A DNA stretch of 64,000 nt from an uncultured Clostridia bacterium (GTDB taxonomy: Bacteria; Bacillota; Clostridia; TANB77; CAG-508): the NCBI GenBank assembly GCA_944393375.1, contig CALXZX010000002.1, forward strand, positions 15,487 to 79,486, written 5' to 3'. The notes under the pieces were generated by a model, which made no database searches, had not been told where the DNA came from, and worked only from the letters and a program-made list of their open reading frames with translations. Both the position numbers and the translations under genes were made by a program. The first letter of the stretch is position 1; every line of letters starts with the position of its first letter. This document shows positions 47,899 through 64,000 of this stretch, one piece after another.

Positions 47899-50010
47899 AT
47901 GAAAACTAAAGAAAATAGAAAAAATAGGGGAATTACTTTAATTGCCCTAGTTATCACCATTATAGTGTTACTAATTTTAGCAGGAATCACAATAGGAGCG
48001 ATAACAGGAGATAATGGTATTATACAAAATGCATTAAGTGCAAAAGAACAAACAGAAATTGCAAATGAAAGAGAAATTGTAGAAGAAGCAACTGTTCAAG
48101 CCATGGGAAAGAATAAAAGAGGAAACATTGTAAAAGATGAATTGCAAGAAGAATTAGATAAAATAACAGGAGAAGGAAAAACCATTGTAACAGAAGATAA
48201 AGAAGAACTAGGATATTTTGTAAAGTTTGTAGACAGTGGAAGAATCTATAAAGTTAGTATAGATGGAGATGTACAATATTTAGGAAAAGAAAATGAATTA
48301 ATCACACAAGCAGATATTATAGCAAATCCAGAAAGTAATACAACAGCAGAGCTAATACAACAAGTAGATTTAACAGTAAAAACACCAATTGAAATAGAAG
48401 GAGCAGAGTATTCATTAGTATATGCATGGAACCAAGATAAAGAAAATGCACCAGAAGATACAAAATTCTTAGAAACAAACTTAATAGGAGAAGGAAGAAT
48501 CAGAACGACAACGGTATATAGTAGTGATACAGTAGGAGGAGACTATTACTTGTGGGTAAGAATTGTGGTAGGAGATATAGAAAGAGAAGCATGTTTTGGA
48601 CCATATGCAATAAAAGATTATACAACTTTAGTATCTGTTGATTGGAATGGTGGTTTAGCAGAAGGAGGATTTTTAGGAAATAGTGAAGTACCAAGAGGAA
48701 AAATACAAAATATTGATATAATTACATCATTAGAGGGACATAGTGTAGATGATGAAAAAACCTGGGATGTATCAGATGGAAATAAAGGAATGTATTTAGC
48801 ATGGTATGAAGTAAATGAGAATGGATATTATGATGTAACGATTGCAGGAAATGGAGGAATTGTTGCAAATAGTTATTCAACATATTTATTTAAAAATATA
48901 GGTTCTGGTGTGGAAAATCAAGAAGTAACAATAACAGGGTTAGAATATTTAGACACAGGGTTAGTAACGAATATGTATTCAATGTTTGAAAATTGTAAAG
49001 CAGAAGAAATAGATGTGAGCCAATTTAATACAGAAAAAGTTACATCCATGTCATCAATGTTTTCAAGTTGTAGTAATATAGAAAGTTTGAATGTAAGTAA
49101 TTTTAAAACAGAGAATGTAACAAGTATGTATCAGATGTTTGATGGATGTAGTAGTTTAACAGAATTAGATTTAACGAATTTTAATACAAGTAATGTAACG
49201 AATATGGAAGGTATGTTTTTGAACTGTAAAGCAACAAGTATATACTTAAGTGGTTTTGATACAAAAAATGTAGCAAATATGCTAAATATGTTTAATGGTT
49301 GTTCTGTAACAAGCCTGGATGTAAGCCATTTTAACACAAGTAATGTAACAAATATGCAGGGAATGTTTGCTAATTGTAAAGTACAGAGTTTAGATTTAAC
49401 GAGTTTTAATACAAGTAAAGTAACAACTATGTGGACTATGTTTCAAGGGTGTCAAGCAACTAATATTGATGTGAGTAGTTTTGACACGAGTAGTGTATTA
49501 TATATGAGAGAAATGTTTGCATCGTGTAGAGCAACAGATTTAGATTTATCTAATTTTGATACAAGCAATGTAACAAATATGTATAGAATGTTTATGAGTT
49601 GTAGAGCAACAAATATAGATGTAAGCAATTTTGACATAAGTAACGTAACATATACTATGGATGGAATGTTCCGAGATTGTTCAAATTTAGTAAAATTAGA
49701 TGCAAGTAGTTTTACAATGCCCAAAACAACATCTGTAGAGTGGATGTTTGGAGGTTGTCAAAAAATAGAACAAATAGACCTTAAAAATTTTGAGGTAAAG
49801 GAAGGAACCAATATTAATCAGATGTTTTACAACTGCCGAAGTTTAGAAAAATTAGATATTAGAAAATTTGATATAACAAAGACAACTGGATATAGTAATT
49901 ACTGGATATATCCTGTACCAACAACATGTAGTATTATTGTAAATCAAAGCATGAAAGATTGGTTTACAGAAAACCTTCCAAATTATACAAATGTAACAAT
50001 AGGAAATTAG
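47899..50010 (+). CDS. Surface protein paralog 2: pilin-like N-terminal module plus BspA/DUF285-type leucine-rich repeats
   Basis: N-terminus RGITLIALVITIIVLLILAGITIGAITGDNGII is homologous to the other five paralogs. The C-terminal half has about 12 tandem ~24-aa repeats (F(N/D)TSNVTNMxxMFxxCxxxxLDLSN). Confidence 0.88.
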   Translation: MKTKENRKNRGITLIALVITIIVLLILAGITIGAITGDNGIIQNALSAKEQTEIANEREIVEEATVQAMGKNKRGNIVKDELQEELDKITGEGKTIVTEDKEELGYFVKFVDSGRIYKVSIDGDVQYLGKENELITQADIIANPESNTTAELIQQVDLTVKTPIEIEGAEYSLVYAWNQDKENAPEDTKFLETNLIGEGRIRTTTVYSSDTVGGDYYLWVRIVVGDIEREACFGPYAIKDYTTLVSVDWNGGLAEGGFLGNSEVPRGKIQNIDIITSLEGHSVDDEKTWDVSDGNKGMYLAWYEVNENGYYDVTIAGNGGIVANSYSTYLFKNIGSGVENQEVTITGLEYLDTGLVTNMYSMFENCKAEEIDVSQFNTEKVTSMSSMFSSCSNIESLNVSNFKTENVTSMYQMFDGCSSLTELDLTNFNTSNVTNMEGMFLNCKATSIYLSGFDTKNVANMLNMFNGCSVTSLDVSHFNTSNVTNMQGMFANCKVQSLDLTSFNTSKVTTMWTMFQGCQATNIDVSSFDTSSVLYMREMFASCRATDLDLSNFDTSNVTNMYRMFMSCRATNIDVSNFDISNVTYTMDGMFRDCSNLVKLDASSFTMPKTTSVEWMFGGCQKIEQIDLKNFEVKEGTNINQMFYNCRSLEKLDIRKFDITKTTGYSNYWIYPVPTTCSIIVNQSMKDWFTENLPNYTNVTIGN

Positions 50011-55460: not shown

Positions 55461-55654
55461 CCTAGAGTTAAGTACTCTAGAACTTTTTTAATACCTTGAT
55501 TATACCAATAAATATAATAGATATCAACAAAAAATAGAAAATAAAATGACAAAATTTATTAATTGGAAAATAGAAAATAAAAAAGAACAAAGACAGTAAA
55601 AAGGCTAAATAATGCATAAAATCCAACTTTCTATATTTCTTAGAGTACTTAACT
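55461..55654. promoter_or_regulatory. Putative invertible promoter (inverton 3)
   Basis: IR-L core 55466-55479 (agttaagtactcta) is the exact reverse complement of IR-R 55641-55654 (tagagtacttaact), 14 bp. The flanking GAA/TTC extends it with a 1-nt bulge. The segment carries TTGATA (55527-55522), 17 nt, TATAAT (55504-55499) on the minus strand. Confidence 0.65.
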
Positions 55655-55683
55655 AAAAGAAAGTATAGAAGGGAGAAGATAAA

Positions 55684-57242: not shown

Positions 57243-57445
57243 TTCATTGAGTTAGATACTCAATGAATTTTTTACTAAAAAGATTATACCATAATTGTAA
57301 AGAAAATCAAGCATTTAAAAAGATATTTAATATAATAATTAGTAATTAAAAAAGTAATAAAATAAAATGAAAAGGTAGTTAAAAATGCACATATTTTCAT
57401 AAAAAAAGTCCTTTTTAATTTTCATTAAGTATCTAACTTAATGAA
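57243..57445. promoter_or_regulatory. Putative invertible promoter (inverton 4)
   Basis: The reverse complement of IR-L 57243-57267 (ttcattgagttagatactcaatgaa) matches IR-R 57421-57445 (ttcattaagtatctaacttaatgaa) at 23/25 positions. The loop sequences ttagata and tatctaa are mutual reverse complements. The segment carries TTGATT (57310-57305), 16 nt, TATAAT (57288-57283) on the minus strand. Confidence 0.7.
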
Positions 57446-60987: not shown

Positions 60988-61054
60988 TCATAAAGTTAAA
61001 ATTTAAATTACTCAATAGAAAATATATTTGTTAAATTAATGAATTAAATATTGC

Positions 61055-61106
61055 AAAATCTCTAATTGTGTTGTAAAATAATGGAAATGCAATTAGAGAT
61101 TTTTTT
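61055..61106 (+). terminator. Rho-independent terminator after paralog 5
   Basis: 14-bp stem aaaatctctaattg / caattagagatttt followed by a T-run. Confidence 0.7.
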
Positions 61107-61440
61107 GTTTTATTCATAAAGTTTTATTGTTAATTAAAAAAGAGTTTTGTTTAATGAGATTTATATCAAAAAATTAAAAAAATAAATAATCTAACGATTC
61201 AAGTATTTTTAAAATGTTAAAAAGTATTAATAAAATTATTTTTCAAAAATTATTTTGTGATTTAAATAGAGTTTAATTCTGAAGTTTTAAATTTGTATTT
61301 GTTGATTTTTTATATCTGAATTTATATCTGAAACATTCCAGTTTTTATATATTTATTTTTCATGTAAAAAATAAATGGTAATTGTTGTGAGTACAAAATA
61401 TCTCTAATGTATTTATAGATAAAGAAAAGTCAACTTTTTG

Positions 61441-61469
61441 TTGAATATGCAATAAAAATTTGATAGAAT
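61441..61469 (+). promoter_or_regulatory. Sigma-A-type promoter of the Rpn-like gene
   Basis: TTGAAT (61441-61446), 17 nt, TAGAAT (61464-61469). AAAGGAG RBS before the ATG at 61485. Confidence 0.55.
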
Positions 61470-61484
61470 GAAAGGAGAAGATAA

Positions 61485-62369
61485 ATGAGTAATTTAAACA
61501 AATTAAAAGAAGTAGATATGCTACCATTATCAAATGATTATGTATTCAAAAGAATATTTGGAAAAGGTGGAAATGAAAGAATATTAAAAAGCTTACTAGA
61601 AGCAATTTTAAAAATTAGTATACAAAAAATAGAAGTAAAAAATCCGGAAATACCAAAAGAAGCAATTGATGAAAAATTAAGCATCTTAGATATCAAAGCA
61701 GAAATAAATGAAAATACCATTATAGATGTTGAATTACAAGTAGGAAATACAACGGCCTTAGAAAGAAGATTAGTAGTATATAATGCAAAACTAATAGCAG
61801 GAGAAATAAAAGTATCAGAAAAATATCAAAAGGCAAAAGATACAATTGTGATATGTATTATAAATGATAATGTTGTAAGACGAAATGCATATTTAAGTTT
61901 AGCCATGTTAAAATATGAAAAAACAGAAGAAATCAGATATGTCAATATGGGATATGGAAAAGAAGAAGAATATTTAACAGACATGGTAAAATACTATATC
62001 ATAGAATTACCAAAGTTTAAGAAAAAGAAACCAAAGGTAGCAGATTTACTAGAAAAATGGTTATATGTGATTGGGGGAGATAGAAAAATGATGGAAGAAT
62101 GCAAAAAAGAAAATGAAGAAATCAAAGAAGCAGTAGAACAATTAACACAAATGAGTGCAGATGAATACGAAAGAGAACTATATGAAATTAGGGAAAGAAG
62201 TAGATTAACTTATAACACAGAAATGTATGAAGCAAGAAGGAAAGGATTAGAAGAAGGGAAGACTGAAGAAAGAAAAGAAATTGCTAAGAAAATGAAAGAA
62301 AAAGGTACAGATATTACATATATAATCGAGATAACAGGTTTAACTGAAGAAGAAATTAAAGCATTGTAA
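61485..62369 (+). CDS. Rpn / PD-(D/E)XK (PDDEXK_2, TIGR01784 'putative transposase or invertase') family nuclease
   Basis: N-terminal L..SNDYVFKRIFG motif. D...E.Q nuclease core (LSILDIKAEINENTIIDVELQ). Charged helical C-terminus ending in an HTH-like KGTDITYIIEITGLTEEEIKAL, as is typical of this family. Confidence 0.75.
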   Translation: MSNLNKLKEVDMLPLSNDYVFKRIFGKGGNERILKSLLEAILKISIQKIEVKNPEIPKEAIDEKLSILDIKAEINENTIIDVELQVGNTTALERRLVVYNAKLIAGEIKVSEKYQKAKDTIVICIINDNVVRRNAYLSLAMLKYEKTEEIRYVNMGYGKEEEYLTDMVKYYIIELPKFKKKKPKVADLLEKWLYVIGGDRKMMEECKKENEEIKEAVEQLTQMSADEYERELYEIRERSRLTYNTEMYEARRKGLEEGKTEERKEIAKKMKEKGTDITYIIEITGLTEEEIKAL

Positions 62370-62418
62370 TTTATTTATAAGTATCATTAAAGAAATAATT
62401 TTTCAGAACATAAAAAAT

Positions 62419-62618
62419 CGTTAAGTCAGATACTTAACGATATAAAACTAAAAATATAATATCAATAAAAAATAGTAAAGTCAATAGATAGAAAGAATGA
62501 AAATAAAGAATTAAAATTCATAAAGAAAATAAAAAACAAAAAGTAGAAAAAACTTGTAATAGTGTTACAATAAGTAATTTCTGCTTTTTTCTTTTTACCT
62601 TAAGTATCTGACTTAATG
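62419..62618. promoter_or_regulatory. Putative invertible promoter (inverton 6)
   Basis: The reverse complement of IR-L 62419-62439 (cgttaagtcagatacttaacg) matches IR-R 62598-62618 (ccttaagtatctgacttaatg) at 19/21, with a perfect 17-bp core. The segment carries TTGACT (62484-62479), 17 nt, TATTAT (62461-62456) on the minus strand. An internal terminator-like hairpin plus T-run lies at 62542-62590. Confidence 0.7.
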
Positions 62619-62640
62619 AAAAAGGAAAGGAGTAGGAAAA

Positions 62641-64000
62641 ATGCAAAAGATAAGGAAAGAACAAGGAATTACACTATTAGCATTAGTTATAACCATCATT
62701 GTATTATTAATATTAGCAGGAATTACAATAAGTGCGATAACAGGAGATAATGGAATCATAGGAAATGCAGGTAAAGCAAAAGAAGAAACAGAGATTGCAA
62801 ATGAAAAAGAAATTGTAGAGAAAGCAACTGTACAAGTAATGGGAAATAATAAATATGGGAACATAGAAGAAAGTGAATTACAAGAACAATTAGATAAAGA
62901 AACGGATACTGGAAAAACAGAAGTATCAGATGTCGGAGATGAATTTGAAGTTGTATTTCATGAAAGTAATCGATACTATACAGTAGATAAAGATGGAAAT
63001 GTAGAAGGTGCTTATGAAATTGTAGAAGATGAATATCCAGGAGATATTACAGTTGGAAAAGATGGAGAGACATTAGATGGAAGCGAAGGAAAACCATATG
63101 AGATTTGGTGTATAGAAGATTTAGTAGAATGGTCACAAAATTATAGAAACTATCAAAATTCTTATATAGAATTGAAAAGAACATTAAATTTTAAATCAAG
63201 ATTGTCTTATATAAACGGAAAAATGTTAAATTGCAATTCAATAGAAGAATTAAGAAATTTATTAACAAATACTTCTGGAAGTGGATTTACACCAATTACT
63301 AATTTTTATGGTACTTTTGATGGGAAGAACTTTGAAATACAAAATATTTATGAAAATGTATCAGGAAAAGCAGGTTTTTTTGCAGATGCTGCTGGGACAA
63401 TAAAAAATTTAAAAATATCGGGAAATATTATTTCAAATGATGGATATGCGGGTGGAATTGTAAGTAATTTAGGAGAAACATTAAACATTAGTAACTGCAT
63501 TAATTACTGTAACGTTACTGCAAATGCAGAAATACATACCAATCCTGGTAATGTTGATGTTCGTGGAACTGCAGGAGGAATTGTAGGAAAATGTGTAGGA
63601 AATGTTATCATTAAGGATTGTGCAAATGAAGGAAATATATATGGAACAAATGAAACGGGAGGAATAGTAGGATTTCAATATGTTTCTAATATCACAATTT
63701 TAAATTGTTATAATGATGGAATGATAAATGGGGAAAGTGATACAGGAGGAATCATTGGTAGAACATTGGCATCAACTGTGCAAATATATAATTGTTATAA
63801 CATAGGAAATATTTCTGGAAGTGTTACTGGAGGATTAATGGGAAATAGAGGTTCTAATGATAAAATAGAGATAAAAAATTGTTATAATTATTCAGAAATT
63901 AAAGGAAGTAAATATCAAGGAGAAATTATTGGATTTAATTGGGCATATGATACAGAAACATCTCCTACAATAGAAAATGTATTTTATACAAATCAAACAA
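62641..64000 (+). CDS. Surface protein paralog 6 (partial, runs off the window end): pilin-like N-terminal module plus GLUG-type beta-helix repeats
   Basis: ATG at 62641 after AAAGGAG. MQKIRKEQGITLLALVITIIVLLILAGITISAITGDNGII start. The frame stays open to base 64000. It is absent from the ORF track only because no stop falls within the window. Confidence 0.85.
   Translation, partial: MQKIRKEQGITLLALVITIIVLLILAGITISAITGDNGIIGNAGKAKEETEIANEKEIVEKATVQVMGNNKYGNIEESELQEQLDKETDTGKTEVSDVGDEFEVVFHESNRYYTVDKDGNVEGAYEIVEDEYPGDITVGKDGETLDGSEGKPYEIWCIEDLVEWSQNYRNYQNSYIELKRTLNFKSRLSYINGKMLNCNSIEELRNLLTNTSGSGFTPITNFYGTFDGKNFEIQNIYENVSGKAGFFADAAGTIKNLKISGNIISNDGYAGGIVSNLGETLNISNCINYCNVTANAEIHTNPGNVDVRGTAGGIVGKCVGNVIIKDCANEGNIYGTNETGGIVGFQYVSNITILNCYNDGMINGESDTGGIIGRTLASTVQIYNCYNIGNISGSVTGGLMGNRGSNDKIEIKNCYNYSEIKGSKYQGEIIGFNWAYDTETSPTIENVFYTNQT

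Follow-up and report, generated by a model that had tools for sequence, protein, structure and literature searches.

A probable promoter-inversion switch upstream of a predicted surface-protein gene in an uncultured gut Clostridia bacterium

We analysed a 64,000-nucleotide (nt) stretch of DNA, referred to below as the window, from the metagenome-assembled genome (MAG) of an uncultured Clostridia bacterium (GCA_944393375.1), focusing on a short element near its downstream end, inverton 6, and on the gene that follows it. Positions 62419-62618 very probably constitute a promoter-inversion phase switch (inverton) for a surface-protein gene that starts at position 62641. The element adds a new lineage to a kind of switch that is already known; what would set it apart, and is put forward more cautiously, are site centres private to each switch, a distal site that may act as a terminator and a frameshifted gene for the putative recombinase. 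The window corresponds to C2:15487-79486 of the assembly (1.54 Mb, 48 contigs, 28% guanine plus cytosine (GC); contigs are given as C numbers), the contig extends 4 kb further, and the completeness of the MAG is 92%.

Inverton 6 consists of two inverted lox-like sites around a predicted promoter

Inverton 6 and the gene behind it comprise the following features, numbered by window position:

62419-62439, no strand: left (gene-distal) recombination site, CGTTAAGTCAGATACTTAACG, composed of half-site CGTTAAGT, centre CAGAT and half-site ACTTAACG.
62598-62618, no strand: right (gene-proximal) recombination site, CCTTAAGTATCTGACTTAATG, composed of CCTTAAGT, centre ATCTG and ACTTAATG.
62432-62605, no strand: 174-nt invertible segment, which takes in the inner arms of both sites; present as its reverse complement in locus L018.
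62484-62456, minus strand: sigma-70-type promoter TTGACT-17-TATTAT with TG extended -10, matching 10/12 consensus positions.
62407-62441, minus strand: putative OFF-state terminator at the left site, a 10-base-pair (bp) hairpin directly followed by U6, found by terminator scan.
62627-62632, plus strand: Shine-Dalgarno sequence AAGGAG, separated by 8 nt from the ATG at 62641.
62641-64000, plus strand: sixth paralog of a tandem gene family, first 453 codons in the window, 510 amino acids in all; its TAA lies at window-equivalent position 64173.

The two sites start 179 nt apart, are complementary at 19/21 positions and share a 17-bp core without mismatch, TTAAGTCAGATACTTAA (62421-62437 and 62600-62616). 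An earlier model-made note based on the letters of the window (the sequence-only reading) had reported the same 19/21 match and 17-bp core, and both were re-found at identical coordinates. With up to three mismatches the core occurs five times in the window, against an average of 0.85 in shuffled sequences, of which 0/100 reached five; the other matches are sites of neighbouring units.

The repeats are palindromic in themselves (8 nt + 5 nt + 8 nt), perfectly so over the 8 + 8 of the left site, and the half-sites follow the consensus YTTAAGT or CTTAGAGT. Since palindromic sites score as inverted in either direction, only an asymmetric centre reveals the relative inversion of two sites. In inverton 6 the asymmetric 5-nt centres (left CAGAT, right ATCTG) are reverse complements of each other. 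Tyrosine-recombinase core sites of the lox, FRT or dif type have this layout, in which inverted arms enclose an asymmetric centre matched between partners. The crossover is located somewhere inside the identical 17-nt cores.

The segment is found in both orientations

We fetched orthologous contigs from other assemblies via exact proteins of neighbouring genes and compared the orientation of inverton 6 in seven independent assemblies. The OFF orientation, in which the promoter points away from the gene, is present in six of them (the window, L009, L015/L146, L016, L017 and L148), and the ON orientation in one, L018 (Logan contig SRR34436985_100255). The left flank of L018 is identical to the window over 308/308 positions, while its 174-nt interior matches at 168/174 positions as the reverse complement and at 65/174 when read directly. 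The L018 sites, CGTTAAGTCAGATACTTAAGG and CGTTAAGTATCTGACTTAATG, have kept their outer arms and exchanged their inner arms, which is exactly what a crossover inside the 17-nt core predicts. By interior sequence L018 is nearest to inverton 6 (168 matches), the best paralogous inverton reaching 143. An origin of the L018 allele by exchange with the inverton at C12:11942, which also has the centre CAGAT, was considered and rejected, as both arms and interior match inverton 6.

The ON allele was reached only through the exact protein of the upstream Rpn-like gene. An exact look-up of the 510-amino-acid protein led to a single other contig (L009, OFF), that of the protein of the downstream gene ileS returned no record, and a search for the left site of inverton 6 in JGI metagenome contigs gave 0 matches.

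A second inversion was found at the sister unit 55461-55659, which is flipped in scaffold_3824 of ENA ERZ16268126. Here the interior agrees with the window at 173/173 positions as the reverse complement, between flanks that are identical at 108/108 and 150/150 positions; the other three switches on this scaffold are OFF. The repeats are shorter than assembly k-mers, and flipped contigs therefore require junction-spanning reads. The sequence-only reading had taken the region for an invertible-promoter unit, a view that a lack of inversion would have undone; the opposite orientation in L018 and the exact flip of the sister unit bear it out.

The same architecture recurs throughout the genome

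A tblastn search with the N-terminal module of the family revealed ~25 or more paralogs on many contigs, and a generic search for exact repeats upstream of these paralogs found a similar site pair, 153-169 nt apart, at most of them. We further performed a strict scan for AGT-N5-ACT sites paired at distances of 100-300 nt. The genome contains 241 such sites, forming 29 pairs. Centres are reverse-complementary in 22/29 pairs (~0.03 expected) and direct-matching in 0; in the remaining 7/29 pairs, which represent unrelated sequences, 3-5 of the 5 centre positions differ. In the 22 real pairs, the number of mismatches is 0/110 for the centre and 60/220 for the outer five arm positions, and 19 distinct centres are used among the 22 switches. 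An extended -10 promoter is present in 22/22 strict switches, ~50 nt from one end. In all switches that could be assigned to a gene (21/21) this promoter lies near the gene-distal site and is directed away from the gene, the OFF state; beside the 22nd (C5:68593) no family gene is called. At least 22 switches in 1.54 Mb correspond to a density of ~1 per 70 kb.

Related genomes, which are uncultured Clostridia or 'Eubacteriales' MAGs (bins prefixed BRZ_, chicken and Hadza samples; related loci L020-L099), contribute 57 further pairs with identical centres and 29 distinct centres, plus one pair with 1 mismatch and one with 2. By promoter direction, 53 of these are OFF and 4 are ON. If the family is expressed, this OFF-dominated census means that each gene is ON in a minority of cells, or that expression is rare in the samples.

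The matching of centres between partners suggests that the 5-nt centre of each switch should confine recombination to its own partner sites. Besides CAGAT, two further centres are used twice in the genome (C1/C10 and C7/C26), and pairs with a shared centre could recombine with each other and give rise to large rearrangements. In L034 and L038, partner sites with 1-2 centre mismatches are combined with an arm of the 'flipped' type; they are possibly relics of such exchange.

Predicted transcripts in the OFF and ON states

The promoter that the sequence-only reading placed on the minus strand at 62484-62456 was confirmed, and it carries a TG extension in addition. It is directed away from the gene in this assembly and toward the gene in L018. 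On the minus strand the left site folds into a hairpin with a predicted energy of -10.4 kcal/mol (z -2.6), and the OFF transcript is predicted to start ~10 nt upstream of hairpin and U6. Of five terminator-like matches between 55300 and 64000, 4/5 are distal sites on the minus strand. The distal site may thus trap the OFF transcript as an intrinsic terminator. In the ON transcript, as read from L018, the proximal-site hairpin is followed by GAAAAAGGAAAGGAG, with no U-run, and then by the ribosome-binding site and the start codon.

The mechanism that we propose combines these elements. Two lox/FRT-like sites in inverted orientation bracket the 174-nt segment with its one extended -10 promoter, predicted to be strong, near one end. 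In the OFF state, represented by this assembly, the promoter would fire away from the gene, and ~10 nt later the transcript would enter the hairpin and U-run of the distal site. To reach the ON state, a site-specific recombinase would exchange strands within the 17-nt cores and turn the promoter to the gene; the transcript would then cross the proximal hairpin, which lacks a U-run, and reach the Shine-Dalgarno sequence, so that the 510-amino-acid protein would be made. The same design would operate ahead of at least 22 paralogs, with the recombinase acting in trans and most likely being the tyrosine recombinase encoded on C26.

A frameshifted tyrosine recombinase as candidate invertase

The candidate recombinase gene is located outside the window:

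C26:8131-9061 (= L100:1629-2562), minus strand: candidate tyrosine recombinase of ~310 amino acids, directly downstream of a paralog with its own inverton.

The other recombinases of the genome are an XerD-like protein (293 amino acids, C26), an XerC-like protein (327 amino acids, C19), an integrase of 534 amino acids (C9) and one large serine recombinase of 528 amino acids (C28), which leaves the C26 candidate as the only tyrosine recombinase that is neither Xer-like nor phage-sized. It matches the NCBIfam family 'tyrosine-type DNA invertase' weakly, at 34 bits versus a cut-off of 221. The gene is split at a T10 run into frames of 235 and 90 amino acids, and, of the R..HxxR..H..Y catalytic set of tyrosine recombinases (PF00589), the HxxR, H and Y motifs are located in the second open reading frame.

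Across species the run comprises 9-11 T. The gene is in frame in two of them (T9 in one; T10 in another sequence context in the second) and out of frame, with a run of 10 or 11, in nine other species and in three assemblies of the same species. The frame would be corrected by -1 nt in some and by +1 nt in others, and both halves are open and 87-94% identical; more distant orthologs have no T-run. A dead gene is a poorer explanation of this conserved split than a recombinase that is slippage-dependent or phase-variable.

We determined co-occurrence in 24 genomes reached through related loci, as evenly drawn genomes of the family are too distant to inform. Orthologs of the C26 gene (L121-L144, L152-L154), several of which adjoin a paralog, are present in 15/24 of these genomes: in 12/14 of those in which invertons were seen and in 3/10 of those without invertons in the sampled loci. 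We regard the C26 recombinase with moderate confidence as the invertase and the chemistry as probably of the tyrosine type.

Alternative explanations

Several observations weigh against inverton 6 being a programmed switch that operates as proposed. Orientation differences are seen between samples, so that switching inside a single population is what we infer; the ON allele belongs to a strain that diverges slightly, at 6 positions of the 174-nt segment; and ON is rare in consensus assemblies (0/21 in this MAG, 4/57 in relatives). The centre CAGAT also occurs, with most of the arms, in the inverton C12:11942-12133, and centres are hence not strictly private. The promoter and terminator activities are predicted from motifs and folds. 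Rare accidents, with short inverted repeats recombined by a general (RecA-type) process and the products fixed in different strains, would account for differences that fall only between samples, for an ON allele in a diverged strain and for the predominance of OFF copies. We consider such accidents very unlikely. The repeats, at 17-21 bp, offer homologous recombination a very short substrate, and more than 75 units across species keep their architecture, spacing (162-194 nt), promoter position and matched centres while the arms drift. The flip at 55461 carries zero substitutions in 431 nt of segment and flanks and must be very recent, and ON copies are found at different loci in different genomes. 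The paired hairpins could also be ordinary terminators or attenuators in a duplicated intergenic region, with the flipped contigs as assembly artefacts: the sites are palindromic, most of the terminator-like matches in this region are left sites, and repeats can confuse assemblers. This explanation is the least probable of all that we considered, given that asymmetric centres match 22 times in inverted and 0 times in direct orientation, that repeats below the k-mer length (k=31 for Logan) need junction-spanning reads, and that exact arm swaps were obtained in two independent assemblies from different pipelines.

A programmed switch is accordingly the explanation that we retain, and the choice of its enzyme is subject to objections of its own. 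Both in this genome and in the majority of relatives the candidate gene is out of frame, so that either slippage is needed or another enzyme acts; two inverton-bearing genomes yielded no ortholog, both of them MAGs that may be incomplete; and characterised tyrosine recombinases have an overlap of 6-8 nt, longer than the 5-nt centre, which reaches 7 nt with the invariant T and A on its flanks included. The first two points would be explained if a real switch were driven by the XerD-like protein (C26), the XerC-like protein (C19), the 534-amino-acid integrase (C9) or a recombinase absent from the 92%-complete MAG. The dif-like layout of the sites, two arms around a short centre, also agrees with an Xer-type enzyme, and enzymes of this type drive phase variation in some mycoplasmas (PMC2268961). 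We judge this alternative to be unlikely, though deserving of serious attention: the open and conserved halves of the C26 gene indicate selection despite the frameshift, genes of the C26 type adjoin paralogs in several genomes and co-occur with invertons, and the XerD-like gene resides in an ordinary housekeeping context beside a spoIIM-like gene. Inversion by a serine invertase of the Hin/Gin/Mpi type has a precedent in global enzymes such as Mpi of Bacteroides fragilis, which control many promoter invertons (cited in PMC2268961). For inverton 6 it is highly improbable, even more so than accidental recombination, because the single serine recombinase of the genome is the large protein on C28, a small invertase was not found in this genome, and a centre of odd length places the symmetry axis on a base and not on the central dinucleotide that serine recombinases cut.

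The gene at 62641 and its product

The sequence-only reading had noted that the gene starting at 62641 has no stop codon in the window. The reading frame from its ATG indeed stays open to 63999 (453 amino acids) and ends 173 bases beyond the window, with no frameshift, premature stop or in-frame CGG. CGGN four-base recoding was therefore rejected for this locus; on our reading, the frameshift of the C26 recombinase gene likewise brings no CGG into a frame from which the downstream frame would be restored. The sixth paralog, for which a stop or frameshift further downstream would have meant a pseudogene, is therefore intact and encodes 510 amino acids. Products of this length are encoded at the same locus in three other metagenome assemblies (L009, an exact match, L015 and L016). 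The N-terminal family module that had been recognised in it spans ~160 amino acids and is 90-93% identical to that of three tandem neighbours.

An AlphaFold2 (AF2) model built on an alignment of 38 sequences has a predicted local distance difference test score (pLDDT) of 87.3 and a predicted template-modelling score (pTM) of 0.85. It starts with a long N-terminal helical region (helices 8-25, 30-34 and 39-69), which is followed by a four-strand sheet (residues 93-126) and a beta-helix (residues 225-445). The N-terminus, a long helix on a four-strand sheet, appears pilin-like, as judged by the layout of secondary structure rather than by superposition on a pilin. The N_methyl family (PF07963) scores 13.4 bits, below its cut-off of 21.2, and the motif reads G|ITLLA with Ala in place of Glu+5. 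Presumably the protein is placed on the cell surface or in a type IV filament. A family paralog starting at C3:36110 is followed, after ~1 kb, by a gene for a prepilin peptidase (Peptidase_A24, 73 bits; C3:38813-39151, L145).

The best PDB match in Foldseek is 3n6z, a fragment of a putative IgA1 protease from Bacteroides ovatus (E 4.3e-10, TM 0.61 normalised to the target), and the next matches are the beta-helices of streptococcal IgA1 proteases. The C-terminal ~220 residues of the model superpose on the GLUG beta-helix of IgA1 proteases (3n6z, 6xja, 7uvl; E 4.3e-10 to 2e-3), whereas the M26 protease domain is not part of the 510-amino-acid protein. A search of the whole protein against Pfam and NCBIfam revealed no significant family. 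Pfam Glug (PF07581) does not match the whole target and scores 18.2 bits on a 117-amino-acid piece, versus a cut-off of 20.5; the paralog at 57441 exceeds this cut-off with 25.2 bits. The GLUG-type repeats that the sequence-only reading saw in the gene are thus upheld by the predicted fold, which matches GLUG-bearing beta-helices, and fall short of the Pfam threshold in the target itself.

The paralog at 47899-50010 has the same N-terminal module and an inverton, and ends in a DUF285/BspA-like leucine-rich-repeat C-terminus (220.8 bits) with no GLUG-type beta-helix. Different C-termini on the same module mean that the pilin-like module carries different cargo domains.

Relation to known switches

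Full-text literature searches retrieved no description of such a system, or of phase variation, in this lineage. Among known systems the closest is the mpl (P35) lipoprotein family of Mycoplasma penetrans (Horino et al. 2003, as summarised in PMC2268961). Most of its 38 genes have an invertible promoter of their own, which tyrosine recombinases flip. Both systems combine a small AT-rich genome with dozens of surface paralogs in tandem and dispersed positions, a short promoter inverton for each gene, independent switching and a recombinase, here putative, that acts in trans and is encoded near genes of the family. They differ in that (i) the cargo here has a pilin-like N-terminus and a beta-helix and is not a lipoprotein, (ii) the host is an uncultured gut Clostridia bacterium and (iii) each site is a complete lox-like palindrome whose 5-nt centre is private; the likeness is one of description.

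Inverton 6 shares with fimS of E. coli, the switch inverted by FimB and FimE, the short promoter segment that inverted repeats enclose ahead of a gene for a pilus or adhesin, the dependence of expression on the orientation of the segment and probably the tyrosine-recombinase type. Where E. coli has a single switch of 314 bp, with repeats of 9 bp and adjacent dedicated recombinases, at least 22 switches of ~180 bp would depend here on one candidate in trans. A global recombinase that acts on many dispersed promoter invertons and varies the surface of a gut commensal is also the principle of the Mpi-controlled polysaccharide promoters of Bacteroides fragilis; Mpi is a serine recombinase, of which no small invertase-type member was found in this genome. 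The switches of Clostridioides difficile provide a parallel within the Clostridia, with one tyrosine recombinase, here the C26 candidate, working in trans. There, RecV acts on several elements, among them the cwpV and flgB switches, and whether a terminator forms depends on orientation, as predicted here. The number of switches in C. difficile is below 10, their repeats are dissimilar, and the cwpV promoter is located outside the invertible element.

The organisation of the sites, two inverted arms around an asymmetric spacer, recalls Cre-lox and FLP-FRT, in which different spacers are mutually incompatible. Heterospecific spacers such as lox511 and lox2272 are engineered, have a 13-8-13 geometry and require spacer identity between partners. 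By comparison, the set described here is apparently natural, comprises 19 centres in one genome and has an 8-5-8 geometry, and its incompatibilities would follow from the matching of centres.

The inversions constitute direct evidence of flipping in an uncultured, genome-reduced lineage of gut Clostridia that is represented mainly by MAGs from bird guts and from the guts of other animals. At least 22 switches are a large investment of a small genome in surface variation, comparable to that of Mycoplasma penetrans. If private centres confine recombination, the genome would hold a natural collection of mutually orthogonal sites for one enzyme, which could be useful to synthetic biology, and confinement of this kind would help to explain how genomes with many invertons escape self-scrambling.

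A more far-reaching picture, which we offer tentatively and of which we would not expect every part to hold, is that of a natural orthogonal lox-like set: one tyrosine recombinase would serve 22 or more invertons insulated by their centres, the distal site would double as a terminator, and the recombinase would be throttled by a T10/T11 run, conserved and out of frame, that transcriptional or DNA slippage bypasses, making switching rare and leaving most cells to display one or few of the beta-helix proteins with a pilin-like N-terminus.

Genomic surroundings of inverton 6

Two further features flank the switch and its gene:

64289-64521, window-equivalent (L001:3776-4008): T-box leader (RF00230, 94.1 bits), upstream of ileS and right after the sixth paralog.
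61485-62369, plus strand: PD-(D/E)XK 'Rpn/transposase_31-like' gene (PDDEXK_2, 151.5 bits), between paralogs 5 and 6.

The sequence-only reading expected the array of paralogs to continue beyond the window, an expectation that did not hold: the sixth paralog is followed by the T-box leader and by ileS (1064 amino acids), and no further site pair is present up to the end of the contig. The order of paralog, Rpn-like gene, inverton 6, 510-amino-acid gene and ileS is the same in two other assemblies. For annotation, this means that the gene is intact, that the array ends at ileS and that segments of this type are expected to differ in orientation between assemblies.

The Rpn-like gene is context and outside the switch proper. 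It is preceded by ~500 nt of non-coding DNA (60988-61484) that contains no inverton, and at least 5 other assemblies encode an identical protein. Since nucleases of the Rpn type promote recombination, this one might play a part in the gene conversion observed among the paralogs. Elsewhere in the assembly, contig C48 (2648 bases) has a GC content of 66%, compared with 26-30% in the other contigs, and is probably a binning contaminant.

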